DNA of 64,000 nucleotides, from contig CAYMDJ010000001.1 of assembly GCA_964389315.1 (NCBI GenBank), positions 543 to 64,542 on the forward strand. The letters are read 5' to 3'. The notes below the pieces were generated by a model. It made no database searches and was not told the DNA's origin. It was given only the letters and a program-made list of their open reading frames with translations. Numbering within the stretch: the first letter of the stretch is position 1; each line of letters opens with the position of its first letter. This stretch comes from an uncultured archaeon. GTDB taxonomy: Archaea > Aenigmatarchaeota > Aenigmatarchaeia > QMZP01. This document shows positions 3,001 to 42,059 of this stretch, one piece after another. The position numbers and the translations under genes are program-made.

Positions 3001-6000
3001 AAAGTTCATGCTAATAGGCGAGAAAGATGCAGAGTTTGACAGAATTCCGTCAATATAAACCTTCAATGTCCCGCTGTTTTCCCTCACACCGGCGACATGA
3101 TGCCACATTCCATCATTTATGCCCCCGCCCACTACAGCTTCTCCTCCAGTGGCAATATCTAATGCTTCAAGAGATATGTTCCCATTCTTTACATCAAGCT
3201 TCCAGATGTAGGCGGCATTTCTTTTCCCGGCAATTACATGATATCCACTTCCCACACTCGTTGTCTTTATCCATGCCGATATGCTGAACCCGGACGTGCC
3301 GAAACTGAAATCAGAGCTATCGCTTATACTGATGTAATCGCCGCTCCCGTCAAACTCGAAAGCGCCGTTCAGCTTGCCTGATGCTGTGGGCGCGGCGTTG
3401 TCATGACCGGTCCCGTTGTTCCCTTCCCCGGAGAAGTCGTATACGTGGGTGTTGTTCTCGCCATAGGTGGAGTCGTTATTCAGGTGGAGGAGCAGGACAT
3501 TGCCGGTCATGTTGGCCCAGCCGTCTTCCTGGCTGTCCGGGAGCTCTGATTCGGTGTCGTTCCAGCAGTTGGTGCAGTTCCATGAGATGTTGGTGAAGGA
3601 AGAGAGTGAGCCCGTGTCGAATACCTGGGAAGTGTAAAGGCCAGTCAGGTTGGAGCCGTAAAGGGTTATGTTGGTTACGTTCGTGATTGTCTTGTCATGG
3701 GTCCCGAGGTCCCAGGAGGAGAATGTGTAGTTTGAGTCGGCCCAGTCGTCATCTGACTTGCTGTCATTGACGTAGCAGTTCCAGATGAAGGACCTGTCTA
3801 TGAAGCCGCCCGGGGGATGGAGGGCTTTGGTCCATGTGGAGAAGTTCCAGATTCCTGTCTTGGTCCGGGTGCCTATCTCCTGCCAGGAACCGGGATAGTC
3901 AGACCAGAGGGAGAAGGATTCGAGTGAGAAGGCCTCGTCGGTGAGGGCAGAGCAGTTGAAGAAGACTGAGGTGAACAGGACTGAGTCGTTGTAGTCCTCT
4001 GGCTCGTGGAGGGTCGTGACGACGTCGCTGTATTCGTATGTTATGTTGACATGATTGAGGTAGGGCGTGGAGCCGCCATAGAAGGTTGCCTTGTACTGGA
4101 TGCACCTGGCAGAGGTGTTTATCAGGCCGGATGGGTTAGTGTGGTTGCTGCTCCATGAGGTCCACCCGCCAGAGCAGCTTCCATCATTGGATGTGCGGGT
4201 CTGGACGGTTATGTTCGTAGTTCCTGGTTTCGTTTCTTCCCAGGAGATGTTCGACCACAGGGAGAGGGAGCCTGAATCAAAGGTATGGGACGTGTAAAGG
4301 CCAGTCAGGTTGTTTCCGTAGAGGGTCACGTTGGTCCCGTTTGCTGTCGTGTTTTCGTGGGTTCCGAGGTTCCAGGATGAGAAGGTGAAATTGTAGTCTG
4401 CCCAGTTGCAGTTGTCCTGGACGTCGCAGACATGGCAGTTCCAGAGATAGCCGGCATCGATGAAGTAGTAGTCGGATGGGTTTATGGTCTCTGTCCAGTT
4501 GGAGAAGTCCCATGTCCCTGAGACGTCCCTGCTCCCTATCTCCTCCCAGACTCCAGTATAATTGGACCAGAGGGACATGTTCTTGAGGTCGTATACCTGG
4601 CTGAGGGCAGAGCAGTTGAAGAATTCAGGGGAGGTGAAGTTTATCGTGTGGTTGTTATCAACAGGCTCTACGAGGGTGACGTTGAGGAGCTCTTCCCAGG
4701 TCCCTGACTGGCATATTTCTGCCTCTCCATCCGAGTCAGGGTCTCCCACGTAGCTGCTGTCATAGCATACGTCATTGTATACGCACATATCAGAGGCGTT
4801 GCAGCAGTAATTGTCTGCTGCGCTGGTCGTGCATGCCTCTGGATAGCAGACCCTGGTTATGGTGTATTCGCCTGCGTCGTCCTGGCAGCAGCTTCCTGTC
4901 GTCCCTGATGAGAAGCCTATGTCCCAGTTCGTGGATGCGCCTGTATAGCATTCGCACCAGTCGCTGTCAGAGTCCCATTCTATCGTGTAGAGGGTGAAGT
5001 TGTCTGACCTCTCCCATATCCAGGAGTCTCCCTCTGCATAGGCATCCGCGCTAGCGTTGTATGTCCCCTCAACGTCGCATACAGTGAAGCCGAGGCTGTA
5101 GGTCCAGTCGGTTGTGTTGGGGCTTCCTGCCGTGCATCCGCCTGACTGGCTGTCAAAGGTCATGGAATAGTCAGAGAATATGACGGTTCCATTCGGCCAG
5201 TAGAGGGTTAGGTTCATTCCATCAACCTCGCAGTCATGGCATTCAGAATCCCCACCAACAACCGCCCTGCAATCGTTTCCCTCGTAGAGGAATTCGCTGG
5301 CCGAGACGTATCCGGTGCTGTTCTTGCTCTTGCCGCAGAAGTCCTGGTTGGTTTCTGTTGTCCAGAAGGAGATTCCGCTGCAGTATCCCTCGTTCGGGCA
5401 TCCTATATCGCTTCCCATGAACGTGCAGGATGAGGAGCCTGAGGTCACTGAGCTTCCTGTGCAGAGCAGCCTGGATTTTGACGTGCTGTTGTAGACCAGT
5501 ATACTGATGTAGTCTGACTCCGGGTCTGATACAGTGGCGCTGGCGGTGACGTTGTCCAGGCCCTTTATGTAGCTTGACGGTGATATGGATTGTGAAGCTG
5601 GGTTGTTGGGGGTGAGGTTGTAGAGGGAGGTCCCTCCCTCGCAATAGGTGCAATTGAGGTTGGAGCTTGAGTTCTCAAAGGTGTCCATCACCCCGACTCC
5701 GCCGTCGTCGCCGCAGCACAGGCTTGCCCCGGTCATCCAGTCGAAAGCATTGCAGCCTGAACCATCGGTGCAGTAGGATTCCTGGGTGTCCCTGTCGATA
5801 TAGAAACAGGTCTCGTTGCAGATGTAGCCGTCAACAGGGCATGTGAGATTCTCATACTCGTCGCACTGGGAAGATGCGCCGCAGGCTGTTTCGCACTGGA
5901 GGCCTGACTTGCCTCCAAGGCCCGATTCAAAGCCGCCCGAGGCCTGCTGGTGGCTTGCGGGGTCACACTCCACGCAGTCGCCCTCTGACTCGTCCCACCT

Positions 6001-9000
6001 GAAGAACTCGTCTGTCCATGAGTCCGAATCATCGTCTGCTGAATCCGCGCATTCATCGTTTTCTGTCGTGGATGCCCAGCCAGACGGGTCCCTGTCAGCG
6101 CAGAAGGTTGGTGGGTTCACTCCAAGAACAGAGTATCCGGTGCAGTACTGGCCGTCCTGGTCGCCTGCAGGGTTGTTTATGAGGATTGAGTAGCTGTAGG
6201 AGCCTGCGTCCCATAGGTCGCTGGTCCCAGAGGATTCGTCGTCCACAATGTAGTAGGCGTTGAGGTCTGTGCATATGCCGGCTGTCCCCCCGGCAGCGCA
6301 GACGCCCCTGTCTCCTGTCCAGGACATCTCCTCGCACATGTCACCGTAGTCACCGACCCCTCCGTCTGTGCAGATGTTGTCTGCAGTGGTGTTGTAGTAG
6401 TCCCAGCCGGTCCATCTTGTTGAATCCTCGCCTGCATTGTCGTCATCAACCTGGTAAGTGCAGCCGGAAGCGGACTGGTCAGAGTTCCAGTCTCCGTCTG
6501 TCCCGCACCAGTATGAACCGCGCAGTGTGCAGGTCGTATCGTCCGTATCAAGGGTGAGGTTTCCTGCATCACTGCAGGAGTAAAGCTGGCCATCCAGGCA
6601 GAGTAGGGTTCCTGAGGCAGAATCGCTTGAGAGCTCAGAGGCGTAGAGGCAGCATGACGAGCCAGATGCTGTTCCGTTCTCGAAAGTGTCGCTTGTGCCG
6701 TCGTCGCCGCAGCATTTGCTTCCTGTTCCTGAGGAGCCTGACATCCAAACCAAACCGCCGCAGGTGCACCAGTTCTCATCAGTGTCGTAGGTTACTGTGT
6801 AGAGCTCGAACTGGGGCTGGTCCCAGTCAGACCACTCCCATACCCAGGTGCTGCTCTGATTCTCAGCCTTTGCAACGGCAGTTGCGTTGTAGGTTCCCTC
6901 CACGTCGCAGACAGTGTAACCAAGATTATATGTCCAGTTCTCATACTTCGGGTCGCCGGCTCCTGTGCAGCCTCCTGTCTGGCTGTCAAAGGACATGGAA
7001 TAGTTGTTGGGGTTGACAGAGGTCCCGTTGGGCCAGTAAAGGGTGAAGTTCATTGCATCCACATCACAGATATCACACTGACCGTCCCCGCCCACCTCTG
7101 CCGTGCAGTTGGCATATACTGCGTTCTCTGCGTATTCTGTATCCTCGCCGAACGTGAATTCAAGGACGTGCTTCCCGTAGGTGAGTGCCTGGCTGACCTC
7201 GTATCCGGTCTCGTTGCAGGAATAGTTCTCATAGAAGACTGCTGTGGTGGCATCGAGCCAAGTGATGTTAAGGACCTTGTCCCCGCAGCGCAGCTCAAGG
7301 AAGAGGAGGTCTTCGGTGGTATTCAGGTTGTGCCACGCAGTCCCGTTGGAGGCGCGGATTGAGAGGTTAGCCTCGCCCGTGGTGTTGAATCTGACAGTCC
7401 AGTTTCCCCCCAATTCAGGATAGCTTTTTACGTTGATTATGGTTATGTCCAGCTCATAGCTCTCGTTGGATAGGTGCGGGACAATCCAAGAGATGCGGTC
7501 TGTGAGCGTGTCGTTGTCCTTGTCTATGTAGGTCAGGTTCATGACGCGGCTCCTTGTCCCGTTCACGAGGCGGTAGAGCTTGTATGCCTCTTCAGGCAAT
7601 TCAGGGACGTCTGTGTAGGCCGTTATGTTCTCGTAGTGCAGCTCTGAGGAGATGGTTATGGTCTTCCTGTAGGGGGTTTCCTGGGCTTCTGAGGATTCGG
7701 GTGCAGGGGTCTCATAATAGACCTCAAAGTTTTTTCCTTGCCTTGTTATGGTGAGGGATATGGCATCGGGAATCCTCCTTTCTTGGGAGGCAGGCTCCCT
7801 GAAGGTTTTGTTGCTCAGGTCTTCCGGTATGCTCCCGCTGCTCATGTCTGTCATGCTGCCAGTAAGCCCGGTGCTCAGAGCATTGGTGCCTGTTTCGTTG
7901 AGGGTGACGTCATCGGATTGGCTAATGAAGGAAGATAGGATGCCCCTATACAGAATGGTTTCTGAAAGCTTTGATGGACTTACGGTTTCCCTGCTCTGGT
8001 TCCCTATTGCAAAGACACTTATGTTGGAGGCCTGCGGGGGGAGGAGGGTGGTGATTCTTTCAAGAGGGACAGAGGAGCTTATGCTCCTGAGCCACCGGAC
8101 AGGCTTGTTTATCTCAGCAGGAAGCTGAACGGTCTCCTCAAGGGCTTCGGTTATTTCAGACATTTTTTCAACGACCAGGAGCTCTACATGGCCGGATTCA
8201 GATGCGTTCATGGAATCTTCTGCAACAAAGGTTATTTTTCTCGTTCCTGTGAAATTGGTGTCCGGTATCAGAGTGGCCGCTGTGCCCGATATCTCCACGG
8301 TGATGTTTTCCGGCCGGGTTGATGAGAATGTAAGGTTGTCTCCATCCGGGTCCTGGCAGTAGTTATCCAGATAGATTGTCCTTTCTGAGTTCATGCCCCA
8401 GAGCTGATTCGGGATTGGAGACCATTCCGGGGGGAGGTTTGTCATGTTGGTTGTGTTCTCTGTGACGTTCTTGGGCAGACCGTGGACGACCGAGTAAGTG
8501 AGGTAATCTATCCGGAGGGTAGTGTTGCCGTGGGTCTCTATGAGGATGGTGTATTCGTCCTGCTCAGGGACATTGATGGAGCAGGTCTCCTCGCAGATGT
8601 CAGTGAAGAGGGTCATGATTGGTGTTGGGGCAGTAATGTTGGTCATGTTGGTTGTTATGTTCTTCTCTGTGACATTGGTGAGGTTCTCTGGGAGGGTCAG
8701 GTTCTCCTGGATTGTGATGTTGGTTTCGTTTGGTGGGAGGGTGACATTCCTTGGAGTGGTGAGATTTATAGAGACGTTCTCGGTGATGTTGGCTGTCAGG
8801 ATTTCACTGATGTTGAGAGAGACGTTCTCGGGGAGAGTGATGTTCTCGGTGGTTTCGTTGGGCGTTTGGTTTGTTGCACTACCAGTTACCCTACGCTCGG
8901 AGGCGTTCGACAGGTCGTAACCCTCCGCCGACTGGTCGGGTTGGGTGAGATTCGTCAGGGTTTCGGGGATTTCGGGGGTTTCTGAGAAGTTTTGCGACTC

Positions 9001-9546
9001 GTTGGGTGCTACATTGGTAACAGAATGGGAGTCGTTTGATGGGGGAGGAGTAAGGGGTTGGCTAGAAGAAGATGGTGAATCAGACATGTTGGTGCCGGCC
9101 AGCATGCCTGTTATGGGAGTATCGGGCGGTGGGGTGTGTCGAAGGTGGGTTGAATCGAAAATGAGAAGGGGTTCGTCGGTGGCAAGAAGCCACACCTTTA
9201 CGTCACCTTCTCCGACAACCGAACCGCTGAGGGAGACAGAGCTCAGGTCTCCAGCCGTCTCCGCTGAAAGGACAAGCGTCCCGTTCTGGAAGGACTGGTT
9301 TATCTTCTGCGTGTGGTAGGTCTCTGTCCCGAGAAAGAAGCCCGTCATGTTGGCGAACCCGAAGAAGAGGGCAAGGAGGATGCAGAGACCCAGCGCCGTT
9401 ATCACAGGCACCTTGCTTGAGGATTGCTCATCTGGTTCGTTCCCGAGGAAGACCTCATTCTCTCCAGTCTCGATGGAGTCATAGTAGAAGGATTCGCCAA
9501 GCTTCCCTTCGTCAGGCTTTTTCCTGGGAGGTTTAGTTTGGGTCAA
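1..9546 (-). CDS. Giant secreted/cell-surface glycoprotein, 5' part only (over 3,100 codons; the stop lies beyond the window). It has an N-terminal signal anchor, a region very dense in N-x-S/T sequons, a Cys-rich module region, three roughly 125-aa homologous modules, two LamG/ConA-like domains, and a C-terminal array of roughly 58-aa W-D-G-x-x-W repeats (beta-propeller-like). The start is probably TTG at 9546 or GTG at 9411.
   Basis: The minus-strand frame (codons on 3k+1..3k+3) was translated by eye at 1-60, about 2,900, about 5,000, about 7,500 and 9,340-9,606. All are in one frame with no stop between the TAG at 9606-9608 and position 1. No other minus ORF in this frame appears in the track across 9.4 kb. 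A hydrophobic stretch VPVITALGLCILLALFFGFANMTGFF follows an SSSK segment. Motifs include DELSIWNRSLSSEEI and DSLMIYNRTLSKEEI (LamG-like), plus recurring QTRTSxD..WxGW and SARxIQY modules. It is absent from the ORF track only because it has no in-window stop and no ATG start. Confidence 0.8.
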   Translation of the reverse strand, partial: MTQTKPPRKKPDEGKLGESFYYDSIETGENEVFLGNEPDEQSSSKVPVITALGLCILLALFFGFANMTGFFLGTETYHTQKINQSFQNGTLVLSAETAGDLSSVSLSGSVVGEGDVKVWLLATDEPLLIFDSTHLRHTPPPDTPITGMLAGTNMSDSPSSSSQPLTPPPSNDSHSVTNVAPNESQNFSETPEIPETLTNLTQPDQSAEGYDLSNASERRVTGSATNQTPNETTENITLPENVSLNISEILTANITENVSINLTTPRNVTLPPNETNITIQENLTLPENLTNVTEKNITTNMTNITAPTPIMTLFTDICEETCSINVPEQDEYTILIETHGNTTLRIDYLTYSVVHGLPKNVTENTTNMTNLPPEWSPIPNQLWGMNSERTIYLDNYCQDPDGDNLTFSSTRPENITVEISGTAATLIPDTNFTGTRKITFVAEDSMNASESGHVELLVVEKMSEITEALEETVQLPAEINKPVRWLRSISSSVPLERITTLLPPQASNISVFAIGNQSRETVSPSKLSETILYRGILSSFISQSDDVTLNETGTNALSTGLTGSMTDMSSGSIPEDLSNKTFREPASQERRIPDAISLTITRQGKNFEVYYETPAPESSEAQETPYRKTITISSELHYENITAYTDVPELPEEAYKLYRLVNGTRSRVMNLTYIDKDNDTLTDRISWIVPHLSNESYELDITIINVKSYPELGGNWTVRFNTTGEANLSIRASNGTAWHNLNTTEDLLFLELRCGDKVLNITWLDATTAVFYENYSCNETGYEVSQALTYGKHVLEFTFGEDTEYAENAVYANCTAEVGGDGQCDICDVDAMNFTLYWPNGTSVNPNNYSMSFDSQTGGCTGAGDPKYENWTYNLGYTVCDVEGTYNATAVAKAENQSSTWVWEWSDWDQPQFELYTVTYDTDENWCTCGGLVWMSGSSGTGSKCCGDDGTSDTFENGTASGSSCCLYASELSSDSASGTLLCLDGQLYSCSDAGNLTLDTDDTTCTLRGSYWCGTDGDWNSDQSASGCTYQVDDDNAGEDSTRWTGWDYYNTTADNICTDGGVGDYGDMCEEMSWTGDRGVCAAGGTAGICTDLNAYYIVDDESSGTSDLWDAGSYSYSILINNPAGDQDGQYCTGYSVLGVNPPTFCADRDPSGWASTTENDECADSADDDSDSWTDEFFRWDESEGDCVECDPASHQQASGGFESGLGGKSGLQCETACGASSQCDEYENLTCPVDGYICNETCFYIDRDTQESYCTDGSGCNAFDWMTGASLCCGDDGGVGVMDTFENSSSNLNCTYCEGGTSLYNLTPNNPASQSISPSSYIKGLDNVTASATVSDPESDYISILVYNSTSKSRLLCTGSSVTSGSSSCTFMGSDIGCPNEGYCSGISFWTTETNQDFCGKSKNSTGYVSASEFLYEGNDCRAVVGGDSECHDCEVDGMNLTLYWPNGTVIFSDYSMTFDSQSGGCTAGSPNTTDWTYSLGFTVCDVEGTYNASADAYAEGDSWIWERSDNFTLYTIEWDSDSDWCECYTGASTNWDIGFSSGTTGSCCQDDAGEYTITRVCYPEACTTSAADNYCCNASDMCVYNDVCYDSSYVGDPDSDGEAEICQSGTWEELLNVTLVEPVDNNHTINFTSPEFFNCSALSQVYDLKNMSLWSNYTGVWEEIGSRDVSGTWDFSNWTETINPSDYYFIDAGYLWNCHVCDVQDNCNWADYNFTFSSWNLGTHENTTANGTNVTLYGNNLTGLYTSHTFDSGSLSLWSNISWEETKPGTTNITVQTRTSNDGSCSGGWTSWSSNHTNPSGLINTSARCIQYKATFYGGSTPYLNHVNITYEYSDVVTTLHEPEDYNDSVLFTSVFFNCSALTDEAFSLESFSLWSDYPGSWQEIGTRTKTGIWNFSTWTKALHPPGGFIDRSFIWNCYVNDSKSDDDWADSNYTFSSWDLGTHDKTITNVTNITLYGSNLTGLYTSQVFDTGSLSSFTNISWNCTNCWNDTESELPDSQEDGWANMTGNVLLLHLNNDSTYGENNTHVYDFSGEGNNGTGHDNAAPTASGKLNGAFEFDGSGDYISISDSSDFSFGTSGFSISAWIKTTSVGSGYHVIAGKRNAAYIWKLDVKNGNISLEALDIATGGEAVVGGGINDGMWHHVAGVRENSGTLKVYIDGILSNSASFSPISMNFASDLHVAKRTDDSSEYWSGLIDELSIWNRSLSSEEILDIYKRGALRLDVQSRTSDDNSVWTGWAGGNFSDESDIMAFWRLESVNASGWTQDESGNNNHGSVSGAYAYHGHFGNSLSFDGINDYMSVPSSPTLQLNNQISIETWVYFDRNTSLEEYPTILQKDGEYWLRMDKTAEGGKISFLLNDGSEWLPKSSSIVPETGRWYYIAATWNGTTQRLYIDGSLSNQTESYFSPSATGNAVTISKTSGDNGYLDGRIDSLMIYNRTLSKEEISEHYQTAGSNHTNPGGVIYTSARFIQYRAILSTDNSLYKPNLNWVNMTYSNVLYPSFVSPTLPNETNSEDDWIYVNVSGGEMLDECILDMTWANGTQNNITMTVDGFYCYINLTSVTEHDAYFRVYANETSGLMNVTEDRFITLYPHSVDLTTPDDNNNSVHFTSVPFNCSASQASGNLENMTLWSDYPGTWQIINYSNMTGYWNFSNWTLNIHPAGGLIDKEFTWNCQPSDDLSHTNWSSNHTFSSWDLGTRENINISNGAISLDKFGRVLTSWIGQADRSLPEYRLWDGQMGYSSAGTATDTTGNIAWVRIASNPDRSEAMMITMDTSHDIYAQRWDGDKWGSADLITANSHCDYERFDAVYINDTHVMVVYRDGSDASIPNYKIWDGSSWSSVGYASDITDDMLWVRLASDPSSDEVILLTQDASNDVEAQIWDGTGWHDHVFLETYDSYTYKGIDVEYDNESRAMLVWGIYDDAKLNYTIWNGYYWESGTAFGSVGAPRAIELAADPNSGNMVLVDWDDADEINGWVWDGSSWSGPTELEADSYLSQYYFPMDVEFDNSSRAIAVWADQGNSRGEYRVWNGASWEAEGQIESLGAMPLFLRLERDYNTDNMFLVTSDTSGSQEVWSQSWNGSGWGNLLNLESDFSNNYNYRGFDVAYTTTYTHNGTYTSQVFDTGSLSSFINMTWSSTEPEDTSITIQTRTSEDNLIWSGWGNRTSGEGEFNNSAR

Positions 9547-9600
9547 GAAACCAGCCCCCGGAGTATTTCTGGGAGTGGAAAAGAAGCAAGTAACATGGTA

Positions 9601-9715
9601 GTTACCCTACAAAAAACTCCCATGTTATATAATATATGTATTGGTTATATTTATAGTTACCCTACAAATAGCTATCCTATTGGTCAGTAGGGTAATTAAT
9701 TCTTGGTGTAGGGTA
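9601..9715 (-). promoter_or_regulatory. Promoter/operator region of the giant gene. A 13-bp direct repeat GTTACCCTACAAA occurs twice (9601-9613, 9656-9668), and its inverted core GTAGGGTAA occurs twice (9687-9695, 9707-9715), in AT-rich DNA with TATA-like TATATAATATAT.
   Basis: The repeats are read directly from the sequence. They lie between the upstream gene end (9750) and the candidate start (9546) of the giant ORF. Confidence 0.45.
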
Positions 9716-9749: not shown

Positions 9750-10211
9750 TCAATAGATGAGGGCGAGGTCAGCTGATATGTTTGTCATGTAGGTGTCTGA
9801 ACACTCATCACCGCAGCACCAGACAAGCCAGACTTTTTCTGTATCCATGTCTTCTGTGCATGGGACCGTTGTCAGCGTGCCTGCGGATTCTGATTCAAGC
9901 GTCTCGTTGCAATTGTAGATGTCAACGTCCTCACCATCACGGAAATTCATGCTGACGCTTGTCAGGGCCTCGGTTCCAGGATTGTAGAAGGACGTGACCA
10001 GGTTGCCGTCAATGCACTCAGATGGGCCATACTCAATATGGCAGCCTTCATAGGACTCTAGGGAATGGTATTTCCCCGGTGCCGGTGAATTGTAATCTGT
10101 GAACAGGACAGCCGCCCAGATAAGGATTACTGCTGCGATGAGGGATACTGATATGAGCTTCTCATTCCTCTTGATGAATCCTCTGTTCATAAGACTCTCA
10201 GACCGGGACAA
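9750..10211 (-). CDS. Small membrane-anchored extracytoplasmic Cys-rich protein (153 aa). It overlaps the upstream radical-SAM gene by 14 bp.
   Basis: ORF track. It has a charged N-terminus, the TM segment LISVSLIAAVILIWAAVLF, and an ectodomain with 10 Cys plus sequons (NCNET, NIS). Confidence 0.55.
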   Translation of the reverse strand: MSRSESLMNRGFIKRNEKLISVSLIAAVILIWAAVLFTDYNSPAPGKYHSLESYEGCHIEYGPSECIDGNLVTSFYNPGTEALTSVSMNFRDGEDVDIYNCNETLESESAGTLTTVPCTEDMDTEKVWLVWCCGDECSDTYMTNISADLALIY

Positions 10212-11106
10212 GCTCTCTGAACCCCCTTCTATCAGCGTATTCCTTGAATATTCCCTCGCAGATATTAAAGTGTTTGCAGGCCCTGCACTGGGGACCCTTT
10301 ACCCTCCCATGCTTTGCCCTGTTCTTCTCCACATCAAGGTCCCTGAACTCAGGGCCTGCATGATGCTCCTTCATTCTTCCTCTGGTGCTGAACTCGCTCA
10401 GGTGCTTCAGGTCAAAGAGCATGTAGCACATGGGAACGTATCTTATCATGCTGTGATTTATGCCGTGCCTCAGGCCCGCCTGGACAGTGGGCTTCAGGTA
10501 ATCCTTTATCTCCGTGAGTGTGGGAACCACCTCGTCAAAATGCTTCAGGGCATTGCCCCTGGGATGGATGAACATGAATTCCATCCCGTCTGCCCCTAGC
10601 CTGGCATTGTTATCTGCTATCTGGGGAAGGAAGCGGTAATTGTCCTTAACTATCACCGTGTTCGTGCAGATATAGATGTCATTGGAAAGCTCCTTTAGGT
10701 TCCTGAGGCCCTGGGTGGCGTATCTGTAGGAATTTGACCGGGTCAAGTAATCATGAAGCTCCGGGGTGTGGCCGTGTATGGAGAAGACCGCGGAATTAAG
10801 GCCGGCATCAAGAATTCTCTCTGCAAAATCCCTGTAGTAGAACATCTTCCCGTTGGTGGTGAGGCTTATGGTCTCGAATCCGAGCTTCTTTGCATATCTG
10901 ACCAGCGGGATTATGTCCCTCCTTATGGTTGGCTCGCCCCCGAGGAGGTCAACGAAAGTAGAGCCTCTCTTCATGGCCTCAAGAAGCTCCTTCTTGACCT
11001 GCTCGGTGCTCATGGGAGGGAGCGTCCTCTTGTAGCCGCCGTCGTAGCAGAACCTGCAGTTGTTGTTGCATTCATATCCCATTATTATAGAGGTCTTTAT
11101 CTCCAT
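10198..11106 (-). CDS. Radical SAM protein of the CNNNCxxC type, with a C-terminal Cys cluster CRACKHFNIC. It is a paralog of 12813-13652 and 21996-22943.
   Basis: ECNNNCRFC cluster at residues 13-20, a GGEPT motif, and a conserved C-terminus ICEGIFKEYADRRGFRELVPV. The RBS GGAGG sits 5 nt before the ATG. Confidence 0.8.
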   Translation of the reverse strand: MEIKTSIIMGYECNNNCRFCYDGGYKRTLPPMSTEQVKKELLEAMKRGSTFVDLLGGEPTIRRDIIPLVRYAKKLGFETISLTTNGKMFYYRDFAERILDAGLNSAVFSIHGHTPELHDYLTRSNSYRYATQGLRNLKELSNDIYICTNTVIVKDNYRFLPQIADNNARLGADGMEFMFIHPRGNALKHFDEVVPTLTEIKDYLKPTVQAGLRHGINHSMIRYVPMCYMLFDLKHLSEFSTRGRMKEHHAGPEFRDLDVEKNRAKHGRVKGPQCRACKHFNICEGIFKEYADRRGFRELVPV

Positions 11107-11335: not shown

Positions 11336-12787
11336 TTAGACCAGATGCCCAAGACCCCTAAGTGTATCCATTGTTTTATTTTCCACTTCTATCGCGGGGT
11401 TCGAATACATGACGGACATTCTTCTGTTATTCTCTGACCATTCGAACAATTCACCCTTTAGTTCCAGGGTAACTTTTTTCTCGTTATCTATTATGTTAGA
11501 TTGCTCTTTTGGATCGGCCAGTATATCAAACAGCTCTTCTGATTGACTAACTGATGATATATATTTCCACCCATTTCTTCTCACGCTCTGTTTTTGACCC
11601 GATTCTGTCAATTCGCTAAATATCGCATAATCTGATATCAGACTATCATTAATCATTAGTGGAGTCATGCTATTGCCTTGGAACGCATCGCTGGTTTTTA
11701 TTTCAACGATATCTAAAAGCGTTGGCATTATATCGATAAGCGAAACGCTGCTCGATATTCTTGCCGGATGCTGTCCAGGTATTCTAATCAAAAGCGGTAC
11801 ATGTATTATTTCGTCATATAGCTCAATATGCAAAAAACCCCCATGGTCGAGGAACTCCTCGCCGTGGTCAGCAGTGAAGACTATTATGGTCTGGTTTTGC
11901 AATCCAGATTCTTGCAGTGTTTTTATTATCTTGCCGACAGAATCATCCATGTATCTTATCGAGCCGTCATAAAGTGCTACAAGATGATTGAAATCATTGA
12001 TGGAAGATTTGTTGAATCCTGACCAAAAAATGTTCCTCACTACACCAAAGGCCTCGTCTTCGGGGTTGGACCATTTTGAATCAATGTTCATGAACAAATC
12101 CGTTTGTGTCTCCACCAAGCTTCCGTCATATCCAACGTCAAAGAGATTATTATACGGCTCTGGCGGTAAATATGGATCGTGCGTTATATAGGTGTGGAAG
12201 AACATGAAGAATTTTTCATGCTTTCCTCTCAGCCAAGCAAGAGTTTCTTTCAGTATTTCCTCGTTCGTAAAGACGGTGTTTTTGTAGATTTTGTATTCGT
12301 CAAAACCATCCCCGAACCCCAGCATGGGGTCAACGTTTCCTCCCCCCGTGAATGCCACTGTCCGATATCCATTATCCTTCAGTATTTCGGGGAGCGTTGA
12401 TATTGAATCATTCAATCGTTTTATGTTCGTGTTTTGTATGTTTATAATTCCGTGAACAGATGGGTACATGGATGTGAACATGGACATATGAGAAGACGCG
12501 GTAAGTGAGGATTGACTGAAGGCGTTCTCAAACAAAATACTTCCGTTAGCCAGAGCATCTATGTTGGGGCTGGTGTCTCTGTGGTAACCATAACAACCAA
12601 GATGGTCTGCCCTGAGAGTGTCAATTGATATAAGGATGATGTTACAGTCCGGGCATTTGTAGCTTTGATTTTCTGGTATGATTATGAAACCTGAAAGGCT
12701 CAGGGTAAAAAAGTATGAAAAGAGAGCTATGAATATGATAAGCAGCATAAAACCCGCAAGATGATATTCATCCATGTACCTGAACAA
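11336..12787 (-). CDS. Membrane-anchored sulfatase-fold (alkaline-phosphatase superfamily) enzyme with Thr at the nucleophile position. It is likely a phospho-alcohol (phosphoglycerol or phosphoethanolamine type) transferase rather than an FGly sulfatase.
   Basis: N-terminal TM segment, then DTLRADHLGCYGY ... LTASSHMSMFTSMYPSVHG ... TADHGEEF. The C/S-x-P-x-R FGly motif is replaced by T-A-S-S-H. Confidence 0.7.
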   Translation of the reverse strand: MFRYMDEYHLAGFMLLIIFIALFSYFFTLSLSGFIIIPENQSYKCPDCNIILISIDTLRADHLGCYGYHRDTSPNIDALANGSILFENAFSQSSLTASSHMSMFTSMYPSVHGIINIQNTNIKRLNDSISTLPEILKDNGYRTVAFTGGGNVDPMLGFGDGFDEYKIYKNTVFTNEEILKETLAWLRGKHEKFFMFFHTYITHDPYLPPEPYNNLFDVGYDGSLVETQTDLFMNIDSKWSNPEDEAFGVVRNIFWSGFNKSSINDFNHLVALYDGSIRYMDDSVGKIIKTLQESGLQNQTIIVFTADHGEEFLDHGGFLHIELYDEIIHVPLLIRIPGQHPARISSSVSLIDIMPTLLDIVEIKTSDAFQGNSMTPLMINDSLISDYAIFSELTESGQKQSVRRNGWKYISSVSQSEELFDILADPKEQSNIIDNEKKVTLELKGELFEWSENNRRMSVMYSNPAIEVENKTMDTLRGLGHLV

Positions 12788-12812: not shown

Positions 12813-13652
12813 TTATTGAATGGGGGTGAATTCCTTTTCCCCTGACAGGTTCAGGTAGCTCTTCCATATCATGGGGCAGTCCTGCCTGGAGCCACATGTC
12901 TTGCAGGCCTTGGCAAAGGCGAGCTCTGGCCCCTGCTTTGTTACTCCCTTTGCAATCTCCCTGTATCCCTCTGGTAGCGTGCAGAGGGGAAAGTGGAAGA
13001 GTTTTACAGGGATGCCTGCATTGAGGAGGGTGTCTGCTGCCCGGGATGTGTGGGGGACCAGTTTGCTGTATCTGATGAATATCCTTTTCAGGTTAATGAG
13101 GGCGTTCCCGGTGTATTTCATGTTTATGAAGACAACTCGCTCGACTCCAGCAAGGTTTCTGGATATGAAGCGGGCGGTCTCGTCCAGGCTGGCGTAGTTG
13201 AGCCTGCTGACTATTACTCTTAGCTCTACCCTGATTCCCAGGGATGTCAGGGCTTTAATTCCGCGCAGGGTCTGTTCCCAGCTTCCCTTGACCATGGTTA
13301 CTGAGTCGTGGACGGAAGGTAGGTGGCTGTATATCGCTATCCCAACCCTGAAGTTCTTTATTCTCAGATTGGAGAGTCTTTCAGCGAATTCCGGGTAGCT
13401 GAACATCCTGCCGTTGGAGACCAGGAAAAGGAGGGTGTCCGGACGGGTGTCCCTGATGTATGACATCGCCCTGAAGAAGTTTGGGGATATTGTTGGCTCA
13501 CCGCCGCTTATTCCAACGGTATGGCAGTCTTTCGGCAGCCTGTCTATGCACTGTTTTATCGTTTTCCAATGCACGTGGCCGGAAGGTTGGCTGCGGTCTC
13601 TTATGCAGGATATGCAGTTGTTGTTGCAAACCAATGTAAGGGGAATCTCCAT
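12813..13652 (-). CDS. Radical SAM protein of the CNNNCxxC type (paralog family).
   Basis: VCNNNCISC cluster at residues 9-16, GGEPT motif, C-terminal AKACKTCGSRQDCP. Confidence 0.75.
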   Translation of the reverse strand: MEIPLTLVCNNNCISCIRDRSQPSGHVHWKTIKQCIDRLPKDCHTVGISGGEPTISPNFFRAMSYIRDTRPDTLLFLVSNGRMFSYPEFAERLSNLRIKNFRVGIAIYSHLPSVHDSVTMVKGSWEQTLRGIKALTSLGIRVELRVIVSRLNYASLDETARFISRNLAGVERVVFINMKYTGNALINLKRIFIRYSKLVPHTSRAADTLLNAGIPVKLFHFPLCTLPEGYREIAKGVTKQGPELAFAKACKTCGSRQDCPMIWKSYLNLSGEKEFTPIQ

Positions 13653-13711: not shown

Positions 13712-15412
13712 TCATTCCTGGGTATGGTTGTGTGCCCATATGGGATAGGGATATGCCCACGGAGGATAGAGATATATCCTGTCCATGGAAGCGTTAAGGC
13801 CGGGGATTCTTCCTTTTACAGAGTAGAGCGTGTAGGTCAGGTTTTCCAGTGAATATTCGGCGACGGGTACTGTTTCATAAACCCTCAGGAATTCCAGGCA
13901 GGACTGGTTATATGGTGGTATCCTGCATATATAGCCGTCGTAGAAGAAAGCCATGCCCCTGTTTCCGATTATCTCTTCAACCGCGTTGCCATAAAAGGCA
14001 CCATGAAGGGGGACGGGGTTTGCTCCTGGAACGACTGATAGTGCATGATAACTCATGCTGAAAACATAGGCATTGTCAGGGAGTTCGCTGCCTAACATTC
14101 CCATGGCCTTTGTCTCAAGAATCCTTGGTTCGCTATAAAACCCGTATTTTTTTGTCCCAATGGTGTAGCAGCATGTGTTCTCAAGATAATCTCCTCCGGC
14201 AAGCGGGGGGATTGCGAATGATATCAACAGGAGCAGTGAAATTAGGGCCGTAATGAACCTTTTTTTGGTCAGATAAACATCCTGGACCAAAGAAATTCCC
14301 GATGACACAAATAAAAAGAGGAAGGATATTGCAAAGACCAGAAGCATGGGCTGCAGGAACCCGGATACTGCATAAAGACCAATAAAGGATATCGGTATCA
14401 GGCCAATGCTCCAGGGAAAGGGAGTTTTTTTCTGGAGGCCGAGAAAGATTCCTGCTGCTATCAGGATGTTGAACAGAAGTGGGTAATATAAGCCCGAAGC
14501 CATTCCTGCAAGAATCTCTGCTATACCGTTGCTCATGCCAGGGCAGGCTTGAAACTCTCCCAAAACCGAAAAAATTTGCTCATTAAGAACCTGTTGATTA
14601 AGCACGAATTCCGTGTTTATCTGCGTCCACAAGCGCTGCAAATATATTATAAAAAAGGATGAAGAGAGAATAATAGCTGCCCTGAACCTGTAGTCATGGA
14701 GCCTTTTAAGGAGGCTCCTCCTTGAATGGAGCATGATGATTATTGTAGGCAGCATGGCTATGAATTCTATCCTCGCATTCAGTGTGAATGCCAGGGTTAA
14801 CAGAAAGAGGTAAAGGGATTTCTGGTCATCATTCCTTAGGTAAAGGCACAGGCTGGAAAGGGATAGGAGAGCGAAGAAAAGGGCTATCGTGAAATCCTCG
14901 CCCATGGCAGAGGCTGCGACCAGAAAAGGATAGGCAGAAAACAGCGCCGAAGCGTAAAGGGCCGGGCGGGTGTCCTTCATGATCAGATACAGAAGAATGA
15001 AGGCAAGCGGTATGCATAACGTCCCGAAAAGGATTGACGTGTATATGGCAGTGTAATTTCCAAGCCCGAACACCAGGAAGGAGATTGAAAATATTATAAC
15101 AGAACCGAATGGCTTGAAATAGGGATGGCAATCCTCTGTTTCATATCCAGTGCAATAGCATATTTCCGCGTTCCCGTGCATCATCAGGTTCTTTGCAGCA
15201 TTCAGCCTGTAATCCTCGTCGATGAAATTGTGCTGCATCGGGGACGAGAGCCTTAGGAAAAGGCCTGCCGTGGTTATCAGTATCAGCAAAACCCACACCT
15301 CCTTTCTAATCCCCTTCAGGGAAGATGCAAGCGTTCCCCTGTCCATGAAAAGGAGAATGAAAACCAGTACGAGATTCAGCACAGTGCCCAGCATCAAGAA
15401 CGTCATCAGCAT
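13712..15412 (-). CDS. GT-C fold membrane glycosyltransferase (PMT/ArnT-like, multi-pass, 566 aa). It is not AglB, since no WWDYG motif is present.
   Basis: Roughly 12 predicted TM helices. The first extracytoplasmic loop carries the DEDYR acidic motif typical of GT-C enzymes. Confidence 0.55.
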   Translation of the reverse strand: MLMTFLMLGTVLNLVLVFILLFMDRGTLASSLKGIRKEVWVLLILITTAGLFLRLSSPMQHNFIDEDYRLNAAKNLMMHGNAEICYCTGYETEDCHPYFKPFGSVIIFSISFLVFGLGNYTAIYTSILFGTLCIPLAFILLYLIMKDTRPALYASALFSAYPFLVAASAMGEDFTIALFFALLSLSSLCLYLRNDDQKSLYLFLLTLAFTLNARIEFIAMLPTIIIMLHSRRSLLKRLHDYRFRAAIILSSSFFIIYLQRLWTQINTEFVLNQQVLNEQIFSVLGEFQACPGMSNGIAEILAGMASGLYYPLLFNILIAAGIFLGLQKKTPFPWSIGLIPISFIGLYAVSGFLQPMLLVFAISFLFLFVSSGISLVQDVYLTKKRFITALISLLLLISFAIPPLAGGDYLENTCCYTIGTKKYGFYSEPRILETKAMGMLGSELPDNAYVFSMSYHALSVVPGANPVPLHGAFYGNAVEEIIGNRGMAFFYDGYICRIPPYNQSCLEFLRVYETVPVAEYSLENLTYTLYSVKGRIPGLNASMDRIYLYPPWAYPYPIWAHNHTQE

Positions 15413-15485: not shown

Positions 15486-16517
15486 TTAAAGTGGCATGAG
15501 TGGATCAGGGGAGGAATAATCCCCACCAACGAGCTTTGCGATGAACCTTGAGCCTCCCTTGCATTTCCAGAGGTAGTCGCACTGCCTGCATGCATCCGGA
15601 ACGAATCTCAGGTATCTCAATTTCAGCATCAGGTCGCTGTTCCAGCATCCCATTATGTCAAGTGGATTCCCTATGTTCTCGCCTATATAATAGCTTGGCT
15701 TTGCAAACCCCCTTGGATCAATCACAAACCTGGAGTGCCCATCATCTGTTATGCCGCCGAGGGAAACGCTTTCCACTCTGGCAGCATCATAGAAGCAGAA
15801 GGGGATTGGATTAGCTATCACATAATTTGTCCCGCTGGTTCTGTTTATATTAATCAGCCTGTCAACAAGGGCCTTGAGGCCTTTTACTGAGGATGTTGCA
15901 TGCTGCTTTGTGGTTGGAATTGTTCTGTAGAGTCCCCAGTGGTCAAGGTCAAGTTCCTGGACGATTGCAGTGAAATAATCAAGATTCGTTATGTTTTCAG
16001 GTGTTGCAACGGTCCCTGCCCTAAGCATCCATATTCCAGTCTTTCTGACCATCCTGAATGAATCTATCTTCCTTCTGAAGGATTCGGCCGTTCCGCCGAG
16101 CCTTGCCTCGCTCTCAGGCGAGAAAGAATTGAGTGAGATGAGCAGGTTGTCTATGTATCTGCCTATTCTTACTGCAGCCTTCTTGTCAATGAGCGTCCCG
16201 TTGCTGTTCAGCAACACATCCATTCCAATGGATTTTGCATGGCGTGCCAGAACGAAGAGGTCCTTCCTAAGGAGCGGCTCCCCGCCCGTAAACCTTATAA
16301 TGTCTACTCCATTGTCATAGACGGCGTCTATTATTTCCTTTATATGACTGGCTGGCATTTCTGGAAGTGTCCTTCCAGCGCTGGCGAATGTGCTCCTGTT
16401 GAAGCAGAACTTACAGGAAAGGTTGCATCGTGCAGTAACTTCTATAATAATCTCGCTGGGCTTCTTTAGGACGCTGGGTACGGATGCATGGCGTTCTTCC
16501 GTAATTTCGTTTTCCAT
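15486..16517 (-). CDS. Radical SAM/SPASM-type peptide-modifying enzyme. It is the candidate maturase for the adjacent His-Xaa-Ser peptide.
   Basis: CNLSCKFC cluster, FTGGEPLL motif, C-terminal CRQCDYLWKCKGG (SPASM-like CxxCx5C). It lies 29 bp downstream of the peptide ORF on the same strand. Confidence 0.8.
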   Translation of the reverse strand: MENEITEERHASVPSVLKKPSEIIIEVTARCNLSCKFCFNRSTFASAGRTLPEMPASHIKEIIDAVYDNGVDIIRFTGGEPLLRKDLFVLARHAKSIGMDVLLNSNGTLIDKKAAVRIGRYIDNLLISLNSFSPESEARLGGTAESFRRKIDSFRMVRKTGIWMLRAGTVATPENITNLDYFTAIVQELDLDHWGLYRTIPTTKQHATSSVKGLKALVDRLININRTSGTNYVIANPIPFCFYDAARVESVSLGGITDDGHSRFVIDPRGFAKPSYYIGENIGNPLDIMGCWNSDLMLKLRYLRFVPDACRQCDYLWKCKGGSRFIAKLVGGDYSSPDPLMPL

Positions 16518-16546: not shown

Positions 16547-16819
16547 TCAGTATGATTCGTGGCTTGCGTGGGAGGAGTGGGAGGAGTGGGAGCCGTGGCT
16601 GGCGTGGTGGCCGTGCTGGGCGGTGACAGTGCCTGCATTCCAGGATATGTCAAAGCTGTTGGTGTGGTCGGCGGCAACCTCGGGCAGGAATGAGAGTATT
16701 GATATCGATGCCAGGAAGGCGCCAAGGCTGGCTGCCTTGTGCTTGGCAACCCTCCCCCTGTTGTCCAGGAGGAAGTCTGAGAACGTGTTCTTTATCTTGG
16801 GCAGGATTTCCCTCTTCAT
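16547..16819 (-). CDS. Putative precursor peptide or small protein (90 aa) whose C-terminus carries six tandem His-Xaa-Ser triplets (HAS-HGS-HSS-HSS-HAS-HES-Y), following a hydrophobic segment.
   Basis: Translated by hand: MKREILPKIKNTFSDFLLDNRGRVAKHKAASLGAFLASISILSFLPEVAADHTNSFDISWNAGTVTAQHGHHASHGSHSSHSSHASHESY. The RBS AAGGGAG sits 4 nt before the ATG. Confidence 0.6.
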   Translation of the reverse strand: MKREILPKIKNTFSDFLLDNRGRVAKHKAASLGAFLASISILSFLPEVAADHTNSFDISWNAGTVTAQHGHHASHGSHSSHSSHASHESY

Positions 16820-16883: not shown

Positions 16884-17351
16884 TCATGTCTTGGTGGTTT
16901 TCCTGCCCTGAGGGACTGCTTCTGAACGTCCTGGTTTCTCTGTCCCCTTGGCCCTGTCCGGGGTCCAGGGCTTTGCTATCCCCTCCGGGTCATCCAGCCA
17001 ATCGGATTCCTCAGGCTCCTCTGTTTCATCGGCCAATGTGTTTGTGGCAAGAGCCCTCCTTATTATGGCCTCCCTTATTGGCTGCTTCTTTGCGGCCTGT
17101 ATGACGTAGACAGAGTAGTTTATGAGCTCGTTGCTGAAGTCGAGGCAGAGCCTCTTCAGGTCAAGTCCCTTTTCCTTGGGCTTTATTGTGACGATAATCT
17201 GCTTCTTGGGTTCGCCCTCGAACAGGAAGTGAGCCTTGTCGAGGAAGACATAGGCAGCAGAGTAAATGACCTCCGGGGGATAGAGTTTCGTGTTAACGAG
17301 GACTGTGGCTTCCTTCCCCCCTGGAGCAATCCTTATTGTTTTGTGCAGCAT
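16884..17351 (-). CDS. Hypothetical protein (155 aa) with an acidic, Pro-rich C-terminal tail. It is the first gene of the peptide/maturase sub-cluster.
   Basis: ORF track. A TATA-like TATTTAAA lies about 25 bp upstream, and no family was recognised. The motif LCLDFSNELINY is only weakly reminiscent of the HxsD LLNDYxLRE motif. Confidence 0.4.
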   Translation of the reverse strand: MLHKTIRIAPGGKEATVLVNTKLYPPEVIYSAAYVFLDKAHFLFEGEPKKQIIVTIKPKEKGLDLKRLCLDFSNELINYSVYVIQAAKKQPIREAIIRRALATNTLADETEEPEESDWLDDPEGIAKPWTPDRAKGTEKPGRSEAVPQGRKTTKT

Positions 17352-17373: not shown

Positions 17374-18411
17374 TTAAATAGGAATGATTCCTCCCTGAAA
17401 AACGAGCGTGAGGACGTATCCTATAAGGATAAAGGCAGCGAAAGGCTGGGTCTGGCAGACCCTGACCGTAGCGAAGCCTATACTCCCCTGCTTCCTGAGG
17501 CGCTTTATCCTTTCAACGTCCGCCTTCGTGAGCTCATCCAGGCCGTGGACAAACCTTCTCTTCTTCTGCTGGAGGAATTCAACAAGGCTCGAGTTCAGGA
17601 AGCTTATCCTTGAATATTCTTTTCCCTTGCGGTATATTCCCTCTGCCATAATCATGCCCGGCACGAGTTTCTCTATTCGCACCTCGCTGGTGAACGTGTA
17701 GTATGCAAGGTGTATGAGGAAGAACCTGAAGAAAACGAATACACCGGCAACGAGGAGGAAGAACTGAAGGCTCGCCAGGGTGAAGAGGCCCTGGAAATCC
17801 AGGAGGGCCCTCAGGACTGCAAGGAGTGCGAAGAATGCCTCTGCCTTTGCGCTTATCGTGACTGAGAAGAGCTCATATACAGCAAAGAGGATAAGGATGG
17901 TTATGAAGTAGTCTGCCTCTATCCCGGCAAGCCTTATAAGGCCTGTGAAGAACCACATGAAGCCTATCAGGATGATGAATATGAACGATATCCTGTAGGG
18001 GTTGAGCGAATGGGTGATGGCTTTCTTTATGGAGGATGCCTTGCTTCTGATAATGACATAGGCAACCATGAACGCAAAGACCGGGATGAAGATGTTCGCC
18101 ATGTATGGGAGAACAAGGCTTTCTGAATAGAGTCCCTGCGGGAAGAGGAGCAGGAGGGCAGTGAAGAGCTTGGCATCCCCTCCTGGCCAGAGGCCGAGCC
18201 ACCAGAAGAGGAAGGCTATGAAGAAGCCATAGAGGAACGTGGAGGCTATAGCAAGTGTGTCTGTCAAGAGCGCGCCTGAAAGGGCCTGGTAGGCAATGCC
18301 CAGGAGCAGCAGGGCGAGGATGAGCCTGTTCCTTATTATCCCGTGCCTTATGTCCTGGTAGCATATGTATATGCCCAGCAACAGGACAGGGAGAAGAATC
18401 AGGTCCAGCAT
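17374..18411 (-). CDS. Archaeal prepilin/preflagellin peptidase (A24 family, PibD/FlaK-like) with extra C-terminal TM helices.
   Basis: Polytopic membrane protein with an N-terminal Asp region (YQDIRHG) and GLWPGGDAKLF (the GGDxKL second catalytic Asp motif). Confidence 0.7.
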   Translation of the reverse strand: MLDLILLPVLLLGIYICYQDIRHGIIRNRLILALLLLGIAYQALSGALLTDTLAIASTFLYGFFIAFLFWWLGLWPGGDAKLFTALLLLFPQGLYSESLVLPYMANIFIPVFAFMVAYVIIRSKASSIKKAITHSLNPYRISFIFIILIGFMWFFTGLIRLAGIEADYFITILILFAVYELFSVTISAKAEAFFALLAVLRALLDFQGLFTLASLQFFLLVAGVFVFFRFFLIHLAYYTFTSEVRIEKLVPGMIMAEGIYRKGKEYSRISFLNSSLVEFLQQKKRRFVHGLDELTKADVERIKRLRKQGSIGFATVRVCQTQPFAAFILIGYVLTLVFQGGIIPI

Positions 18412-24015: not shown

Positions 24016-24085
24016 TTTCTTTTGTTATTTAAAACGTCATGCTTAAGTGTCCATGATAAGAAGCTTTGAGTTGGTTTTTTAATGA

Positions 24086-26029: not shown

Positions 26030-26049
26030 AGGCCCATTGGGACAACTTC

Positions 26050-39827: not shown

Positions 39828-39835
39828 GCCCGGGG

Positions 39836-40545: not shown

Positions 40546-40632
40546 GTTTATAATATACCCTTGTTGTTTTTAGGGTTTTGGTGGAGCAGAAAGATATTTA
40601 AACGGTGGTTATAAGATAATTCCAGTGGTTTC

Positions 40633-42056: not shown

Positions 42057-42059
42057 ATC

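Follow-up and report, generated by a model that had tools for sequence, protein, structure and literature searches.

What does a radical S-adenosylmethionine (rSAM) enzyme have to do with the small cysteine-rich membrane protein encoded right behind it? The question is raised by a locus in a stretch of 64,000 nucleotides from an uncultured archaeon of the Aenigmatarchaeota (assembly GCA_964389315.1, contig CAYMDJ010000001.1, positions 543 to 64,542), which we call the window and whose positions are used throughout. An earlier note, made from the letters of this DNA, had suggested that the enzyme (here rSAM-A) and the small protein (here the mini-protein), together with a second pair of the same kind, might be enzymes and their substrates, the cysteines receiving thioether or other crosslinks. 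We find that rSAM-A and the mini-protein form a conserved, tightly coupled two-gene module, which is real and so far undescribed. The pattern of cysteine conservation and the neighbouring genes point to another relationship between the partners than the one first proposed.

The rSAM-A and mini-protein gene pair

All the genes between about 9.6 kb and 24 kb of the window lie on the minus strand. The mini-protein had been described as a 153-amino-acid (aa) product whose open reading frame (ORF) overlaps the end of the rSAM gene by 14 bp. This ORF exists (9750-10211, minus strand), but it opens with a TTG at 10211, and the overlap needs this start. Because in our alignment of close homologues (A1) the orthologues start level with the ATG at 10190, this ATG is most likely the start of the mini-protein, the TTG being less so, and the gene then spans 9750-10190 and encodes 146 aa. 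rSAM-A (10198-11106, minus strand, 302 aa) ends with a TGA at 10200-10198, leaving 7 nt to the ATG, so that there would be no overlap if ATG 10190 is used, although the coupling is still tight. The gap upstream of rSAM-A is 229 nt, and the two genes appear bicistronic here.

The mini-protein carries, as had been noted, an N-terminal hydrophobic anchor, a CC pair and a CxxxC arrangement (WCCGDEC). It has seven cysteines and not ten (57, 66, 101, 118, 132, 133 and 137 in the 153-aa form; C50, C59, C94, C111, C125, C126 and C130 in the 146-aa numbering used below). Two N-x-S/T sequons are indeed present, but they are not conserved among homologues, either in A1 or in a wider, 39-sequence alignment of the family (A2).

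rSAM-A is a radical SAM protein (PF04055, 83.9 bits) of the expected CNNNC type, with the cluster motif C13-NNN-C17-RF-C20 (CNNNCRFC). Four further cysteines, C227, C274, C277 and C283, are invariant in the rSAM-A alignment (A3); they make up a C-terminal CxxCx5C plus C227 and would fit one auxiliary cluster. The best NCBIfam model for rSAM-A, and for the paralogue rSAM-B described below, is HxsC4 (NF038332), with 139.1 and 170.3 bits, respectively, for a cutoff of 500. Judging by these scores, both are HxsC-like paralogues, and neither HxsC4 nor members of a named family. Neither has a SPASM match (PF13186) in Pfam, nor is an RRE/PqqD-type match listed for them in Pfam or NCBIfam. Homologues of rSAM-A (n=506 at E<1e-20) come mainly from DPANN archaea and are 45-62% identical across phyla; those with a named source are mostly from Aenigmatarchaeota and Diapherotrites, with single records from Nanohaloarchaea and Altiarchaeota.

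Is the pairing conserved elsewhere, as the enzyme-substrate proposal supposed? When loci were retrieved through the mini-protein, an rSAM-A orthologue of ~303 aa stood immediately upstream of the mini-protein gene in five of five distinct contigs (L001, L002, L003, L005 and L007; L006 is the same contig as L003, and the short contig L004 encodes the L003 protein in an identical arrangement). A profile search of genome contigs with A1 returned two loci. Retrieval through the rSAM alone, followed by annotation with local BLAST and hidden Markov models (HMMs), gave, once redundancy was removed, 21 loci in which an rSAM-A orthologue (>=300 bits) is followed by a sufficient length of sequence. The mini-protein gene is directly downstream in 11 of these and within 5 kb in 13, the two extra ones being L010 and L024/L025; in the other 8 there is no mini-protein within 8 kb, or within the available sequence of shorter contigs. 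On four truncated contigs the start of a mini-protein is visible. The loci in which it comes straight after rSAM-A are L001, L002, L003, L005, L007, L009, L012, L016, L021, L022, L026, L028, L029, L031, L033 and L034. Those without an adjacent mini-protein belong mostly to one clade, which includes loci that retain it. Within the orthologous clade, the pairing is conserved.

A more distant group of loci, L038-L090 (43-47% identity), has tandem arrays of HxsC-like rSAM genes, some of them fused into polypeptides with two or three rSAM domains, and has no mini-protein. Examples of polypeptides with two or three tandem HxsC-like domains are found at L039 7989-9869, L041 3749-6004, L045 5219-7129 and L047 2970-6170, in DPANN-type metagenome loci with arrays of 5-7 rSAM genes. 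We also considered in-frame readthrough or fusion of rSAM-A and the mini-protein, suggested by loci with a lone stop codon between the two ORFs in one frame, and rejected it: by our reading of the offsets only about 9 of 20 loci are of this kind, the window is out of frame, and the homologues include no fused protein. DUF483-like proteins with a GYPxCCxxF motif recur beside rSAM-A, also where no mini-protein adjoins (L003 4958-5848, minus strand; L014 8922-9803, minus strand; L032 8922-9845, minus strand; L010 8923-9435).

The second pair and the Cys-repeat domain

The second pair consists of rSAM-B (21996-22943, minus strand, 315 aa), which is 36% identical to rSAM-A, and an exported protein of 678 aa (19967-22003, minus strand). 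The stop codon of rSAM-B overlaps the ATG of the 678-aa gene by 8 nt, in the sequence ATGAATAA. The overlap and the paralogy are as the earlier note had described them, but the exported protein is Cys-rich only at its end: an N-terminal signal/anchor and an Ig-like middle are followed by a C-terminal helical domain (~19970-20380) in which 12 of the 18 cysteines fall within the last ~136 residues, at a spacing of 11-14 residues. We refer to it as the Cys-repeat domain. It is modelled as an alpha-helical repeat, with a pLDDT of ~90 only for the part covered by homologues, and the model has no fold match in the PDB. In the model the cysteines recur at a regular helix-boundary spacing, which is typical of stapled repeats.

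The C-terminal Cys-repeat region is homologous to small transmembrane-anchored proteins encoded in DPANN loci, and there it keeps company with the mini-protein. A Cys-repeat gene directly follows the mini-protein gene in L007, L010, L024 and L026, and the two domains are fused in L028, L031 and L033, as well as in several database proteins of ~220-257 aa and, in the reverse order, in P0045. An rSAM-B orthologue lies beside the Cys-repeat gene, or one gene from it, in the window and in L002, L010, L024, L028 and L031; there is no such proximity in L016, L021 and L039. In L024/L025 the mini-protein is parted from rSAM-A yet still with the Cys-repeat protein, and in the window and L002 the rSAM-A/mini-protein and rSAM-B/Cys-repeat pairs stand at opposite ends of the cluster. 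From the adjacency and fusions of the two domains and the proximity of rSAM-B to the Cys-repeat gene, the ancestral order looks like rSAM-A, mini-protein, Cys-repeat and rSAM-B, split into two pairs in the window.

Probable cysteine pairs in a predicted ectodomain

By its homologues the mini-protein is a real gene of an unannotated archaeal family. No Pfam or NCBIfam model matches it, even at E<=1. The ten close homologues (E 1e-33 to 1e-95) keep all seven cysteines, and an exhaustive search of 1.84 billion cluster representatives returned 50 representatives of the family at E<=1e-3, nearly all of 135-160 aa. Six cysteines are invariant or nearly so in the 39-sequence alignment, C50, C59, C111, C125, C126 and C130, in the pattern C-x8-C ... 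C ... WCC-x3-C; the seventh, C94, is restricted to the close relatives of the window. Outside the cysteines only N70 and L98 are invariant in the family, both within beta-strands of the predicted fold.

An AlphaFold2 model built on the family alignment (mean pLDDT 88.6) places a long transmembrane helix at residues 4-33, joined by a linker to a seven-strand beta-sandwich (52-134). The N-terminal tail is more positive than the flank following the transmembrane segment in 70 of 75 homologues (mean net charge +2.8 versus -1.3), which predicts an N-in, C-out orientation of the type-II, single-pass kind, the helix acting as a signal anchor; on this charge bias the cysteine domain is expected to be extracytoplasmic. 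Foldseek matches of the model to the PDB are weak (best E 1.5e-3, TM-score 0.36), the top ones being helix-anchored Ig-like proteins, namely archaeal pilins, FlaF and TRAP subunits.

Two other identities for the mini-protein were considered and discarded. FlaF (4zbh), archaeal type IV pilins (8fk7, 6w8u) and archaellin (5tfy) likewise consist of an N-terminal hydrophobic helix followed by a small beta-sandwich, and the cluster encodes an A24 prepilin-type peptidase, which together would suggest a type IV pilin. However, the structural scores are weak and, because the family lacks a class III signal motif, we do not take the mini-protein for a pilin; inspection of A1 and A2 finds no conserved Gly/Ala at -1, and the sole RG precedes the charged FIKRNEK. 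The second idea, that the mini-protein domain is a repeat unit of giant surface proteins, came from 26 matched stretches in each of P0043 and P0059; P0043 and P0054 are free of cysteine, and the family HMM matches none of three giants.

The distribution of the cysteines among homologues is more informative. All six family cysteines are kept in 63 of 72 distinct complete or near-complete mini-protein homologues, so that their conservation among orthologues, which the earlier note had singled out for checking, holds. Truncations and a 2-3-residue shift of C111 aside, the only losses in the 72 are three double ones, each confirmed by eye: P0055 is without C50 and C126, P0047 without C59 and C111, and the L029 protein without C125 and C130. 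No single cysteine loss occurs among the 72 aligned homologues, and a profile search with A2 in a set of 5.8 billion proteins returned 15 proteins and no further loss. The three double losses partition the six cysteines exactly into three pairs, an outcome for which three random pairs have a chance of ~2.7% (90/3,375; our calculation). In the AlphaFold2 model, C125 and C130 are opposed across a predicted hairpin (121-126/129-134). The Cys-repeat proteins have an even number of cysteines in 13 of 13 distinct cases (6, 8, 12, 14, 18, 20 or 22). Since the losses are paired and complementary and the counts of the Cys-repeat proteins are even, we infer that the mini-protein has three intradomain Cys-Cys pairs, C50-C126, C59-C111 and C125-C130, which would most simply be disulfides. 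Such a pattern is the one expected for disulfides, and not for cysteines each joined to a non-Cys acceptor.

These observations bear directly on the proposal that the mini-protein is the substrate of rSAM-A and the Cys-repeat protein that of rSAM-B, with sactionine- or ranthionine-type thioethers, or similar crosslinks, installed before export. It draws on the tight, conserved and translationally coupled adjacency of the genes, on the persistence of both pairs through the rearrangement of the cluster in the window and L002, on the cysteines being the sole strongly conserved reactive residues, and on the extra invariant cysteines of rSAM-A, all four of which suit an auxiliary cluster. It also has precedents, as rSAM enzymes modify proteins before their export in the case of the anaerobic sulfatase-maturating enzyme (anSME) with sulfatases and of QhpD with QhpC, a small protein whose crosslinks are made in the cytoplasm before it is exported. 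In SCIFF/ScfB, PapB ranthipeptides, CefB 'Cys-every-fifth', CXXX-repeat and QhpD/QhpC systems, as here, an rSAM gene adjoins a gene for regularly spaced conserved cysteines.

However, the likeness to these Cys-rich-peptide maturases stops at the gene arrangement. rSAM-A and rSAM-B are without SPASM and RRE domains, and in the whole cluster only the HxsB described below matches the models of those maturases, far below their cutoffs. The SPASM domain with two auxiliary clusters of the sacti- and ranthipeptide type has no counterpart in rSAM-A, with its one CxxCx5C plus C227. The partners here are predicted to be folded, membrane-anchored ectodomains of at least 95 residues and not leader-core peptides, and the mini-protein cysteines co-vary in pairs, an indirect sign that they are not singly linked to non-Cys acceptors. 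The thioether proposal is thus weakened by the pair signature and the even counts, by the position of the cysteines in a domain that would fold outside the cytoplasm, behind a signal anchor, and by the missing SPASM and RRE. It is also weakened by the presence in the cluster of an H-x-S-repeat precursor, the kind of substrate known for this enzyme lineage. Moreover, Sec would have difficulty in passing loops of 52-76 residues that crosslinks had closed in the cytoplasm, and would probably be blocked by them; inspection of the tail finds no twin-arginine motif. Two features of the loci point the same way, the 8 of 21 in which rSAM-A has no mini-protein at hand, and L024/L025, in which the mini-protein stays with the Cys-repeat protein and not with rSAM-A. 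We consider a substrate role of the two proteins' cysteines unlikely, and less likely than the structural role set out in the next section. Of what the earlier note had put forward, the conserved, linked module therefore stands, and the enzyme-substrate relationship with thioethers is the part that these data do not support.

A paired-loss signature is nevertheless blind to the difference between an S-S bond and a bridged pair of cysteines. rSAM-A and rSAM-B could covalently modify the exported Cys-rich domains with redox-insensitive bridges, for instance of a one-carbon S-C-S type, or with short-range thioethers; an S-C-S bridge would echo the +C/-4H change reported for bacterial HxsA (see below). 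The chief obstacle is the membrane passage of a domain with long-range crosslinks, and we give this idea a slim chance. If true, such bridges would be 'disulfide surrogates' on folded surface proteins of anaerobic archaea.

An extracytoplasmic metal or iron-sulfur site, with a redox or metal-handling role, seems very improbable. The near-invariance of the cysteines, the mostly anoxic habitats of the organisms and the His-rich HxsA-like peptide encoded nearby would all suit it, but each pair-loss variant retains four cysteines, as is more readily explained by independent pairs than by one site common to all six. The cysteine spacing matches no known cluster motif either, and that of the Cys-repeat domain, at helix boundaries, belongs with stapled repeats.

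An HXS-like cell-envelope cluster

If the cysteines are occupied with each other, on what would the enzymes act? The surrounding genes offer a candidate. The product of 18447-19886 (minus strand, 479 aa) is an HxsB radical SAM/SPASM maturase, with 395.7 bits for TIGR03978, above the cutoff of 370. An HxsC-like radical SAM protein (12813-13652, minus strand, 279 aa) has TIGR03977 as its best family over the full length, with 205.7 bits for a cutoff of 267.9, and a small HxsD-like protein (16884-17351, minus strand, 155 aa) reaches 46.6 bits with TIGR03976 for a cutoff of 50. A precomputed HxsD match (PF27806) exists for the gene at the same position in L002 and for the HxsD-like gene in L009. 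A tandem-H-x-S precursor with an export signal, as expected of HxsA, is found at 16547-16819 (minus strand, 90 aa; HxsA4 model NF038313, 37.5 bits for a cutoff of 55): an N-terminal extension is followed by a Sec-like hydrophobic segment ending PEVAA/DHTN and by six overlapping C-terminal H-x-S motifs, HASHGSHSSHSSHASHES. This layout is conserved in L002, L009, L010, L028 and L031. The archaeal version has an extension of ~25 aa, a hydrophobic segment ending PEVAA(A/D)HTN and H-x-S repeats that number up to ~30 in L028/L031. With an HxsB above its curated cutoff, with HxsC-, HxsD- and HxsA-like genes around it and with HxsC-type models as the best matches of both paired rSAMs, the cluster is, by its gene content, an archaeal His-Xaa-Ser (HXS)-like multi-radical-SAM cell-envelope cluster, within which rSAM-A and the mini-protein form an accessory module. 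PADLOC v2, which is without Hxs models, gives generic viperin-type rSAM matches only.

In Escherichia coli, HxsB, HxsC and HxsD mature the exported effector HxsA of an anti-phage system (Li et al., Nat Commun 2026, PMC13128918). The maturation involves N-terminal processing and a +8 Da (+C/-4H) change in the His- and Ser-containing SHRSS motif, not on cysteine, and the Hxs proteins are proposed to aid a non-canonical export of HxsA in bacteria (PMC13128918). Anti-phage activity, by blocking DNA entry, was shown for the E. coli system only; 99.7% of HXS systems are in Pseudomonadota and the word 'archaea' is absent from that study (PMC13128918). The archaeal cluster shares with these systems the HxsB-type rSAM/SPASM protein, the CNNNC HxsC-type rSAMs, the HxsD-like protein and an exported H-x-S-repeat precursor whose N-terminal region is probably processed. 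It differs, beyond being archaeal, in that a defence role is at most conjectural for it; that its HxsA-like protein is just 90 aa long and without a peptidoglycan-binding domain; that its HxsC, HxsD and HxsA are all under the curated cutoffs; that two additional HxsC paralogues each have an exported Cys-rich protein as partner; and that it adds an A24 peptidase, a PMT_2 glycosyltransferase, one more rSAM and a giant surface protein.

The explanation that we tentatively favour, giving it slightly less than an even chance, sees in the mini-protein and the Cys-repeat domain surface adaptors or structural parts of an archaeal HXS-like envelope system, anchored in the membrane and stapled by disulfides, with the HxsC-like rSAMs acting on a cytoplasmic precursor. 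The ~95-residue Ig-like ectodomain of the mini-protein would be clamped by its three Cys-Cys pairs and would work on the outer face of the membrane with the helical Cys-repeat domain, which is a separate small protein or part of a mini-protein fusion in DPANN loci, and here the C-terminus of the 678-aa protein paired with rSAM-B. These exported domains might serve to retain or display the HxS-repeat peptide once an rSAM has matured it, or the giant surface protein encoded next door. As for the HxsC-like rSAMs, they would act in the cytoplasm on a different precursor, and not on the cysteines of the mini-protein and the Cys-repeat domain. What recommends an adaptor role is that the peptidoglycan-binding anchor of bacterial HxsA has no counterpart in the archaeal HxsA-like peptide. 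The analysis shows the gene family with its topology signal and predicted fold, the conserved adjacency, the domain fusions and the pairwise pattern of the cysteines; disulfide bonds, an adaptor function and a given rSAM substrate are inferred.

Two other roles for the mini-protein were considered. One, which we regard as quite unlikely, makes it a membrane tether or export-coupling partner, whose tail or transmembrane segment recruits rSAM-A and so couples the modification of HxsA, or of another precursor, to its export, the ectodomain having a stabilising or sensing function. The 7-nt spacer here and the one-stop-codon spacing in many loci suggest a near 1:1 coupling, an Hxs-assisted export is what the bacterial study proposes, and the weak best folds are those of helix-anchored Ig-like subunits of membrane machines (archaeal pilins, FlaF and TRAP). 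But conservation of the short tail is poor, some loci have rSAM-A with no mini-protein close by, and no fusion of the two exists among the ~120 homologues listed, all of which are ~300 aa.

The other, whose chance we put no higher, is that rSAM-A modifies a non-Cys site of the mini-protein, in the cytoplasmic tail or at a conserved Tyr or Asn, before or during membrane insertion, the cysteines being plain disulfides. It accounts for the bicistronic pairing while accepting the Cys-pair signature, and the modification of bacterial HxsA also spares cysteine, falling in SHRSS (PMC13128918). The tails of close homologues would provide sites, with E10 and S14 invariant and F5, R8 and N9 nearly so. 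However, this tail motif is not kept across the wider family in the 39-sequence alignment, the mini-protein has no H-x-S motif, and N70 and L98, the only non-Cys invariants, both belong to strands of the predicted sandwich.

Several points weigh against the adaptor explanation. In about half of the related loci the sequenced flanks show no HxsA, HxsB or HxsD, which makes the tie of the module to the HXS core a loose one. The cysteine pairing is read from three loss events, the cysteine count is odd (seven) in the clade of the window, where C94 is extra and unpaired, and stable disulfides are not a given on an anaerobic archaeal surface. Furthermore, a structural role leaves unexplained why the step from rSAM-A to the mini-protein is the tightest conserved adjacency of the cluster.

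The cluster and its surroundings contain further genes. A peptidase A24 (prepilin-peptidase-like) membrane protein is encoded at 17374-18411 (minus strand; PF01478, 39.4 bits). Its gene recurs beside Hxs-like genes in many loci, with an hxsC-A24 pair conserved in L038-L090, and this recurrence hints that the peptidase may carry out the N-terminal processing of the HxsA-like precursor. A further rSAM of the NirJ/PqqE (SPASM-maturase) type lies at 15486-16517 (minus strand, 343 aa; Pfam, NCBIfam), and a PMT_2 (GT-C) membrane glycosyltransferase, which recurs in related loci, at 13712-15412 (minus strand, 566 aa; PF13231, 28.3 bits). Between the HxsC-like gene and rSAM-A, a membrane-anchored protein of the sulfatase/alkaline-phosphatase superfamily (11336-12787, minus strand; PF00884, 182 bits) has, in a manual alignment, LTASSH in place of the C/S-x-P-x-R formylglycine motif; it may be a Thr- or Ser-nucleophile transferase of the LtaS/EptA kind and not a sulfatase. 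A sulfatase with its anSME was rejected as an explanation, with CxPxR missing and HxsB alone matching TIGR03942, at 89 bits for a cutoff of 349.

Directly downstream of the mini-protein, behind an intergenic region of its own, a giant surface-protein ORF (1-9606, minus strand) encodes more than 3,202 aa and extends past the start of the window. The protein combines an N-terminal hydrophobic segment with N-x-S/T sequons at very high density, and in L001-L003 the mini-protein is likewise followed by giant ORFs, of 2,107-5,524 aa. In the intergenic region a 20-nt sequence is found twice in direct orientation (9599-9618 and 9654-9673, 90% identical), and its core recurs as an inverted copy (GTAGGGTAATTA, 9687-9698). 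AT-rich, TATA-like sequence lies amid these copies, which may bind a regulator of the giant gene.

Beyond rSAM-B, the region 23002-29888 holds additional genes for envelope and modification functions: two amidotransferases, one WbuX-like and one of the asparagine-synthase type, a DUF362 protein and two rSAMs, of which one has a zinc ribbon (TrsS/Tes-like) and the other binds B12. At least seven rSAM genes are thereby found within 20 kb. The window also carries archaeal chromosomal genes, for Orc1/Cdc6, PolB, archaeal PheRS and GlyRS. The orc1/cdc6 gene (42312-43514) is close to that of the family B DNA polymerase (46563-49238), and a scan of 39800-42400, near orc1, found no clear origin-type (ORB) repeats.

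Bacterial HXS has only recently been shown to be an rSAM-matured envelope defence, and the locus described here represents an archaeal relative of it that has a different and larger set of parts and is widespread among DPANN-type archaea. It brings two unannotated families of exported, cysteine-stapled domains, repeatedly adjacent or fused, which are now available for annotation. If the rSAMs do act on these proteins, folded surface proteins would come within the reach of chemistry like that of ribosomally synthesized and post-translationally modified peptides (RiPPs). Otherwise, the module still points to how wall-less archaea might anchor an HxS-type effector.

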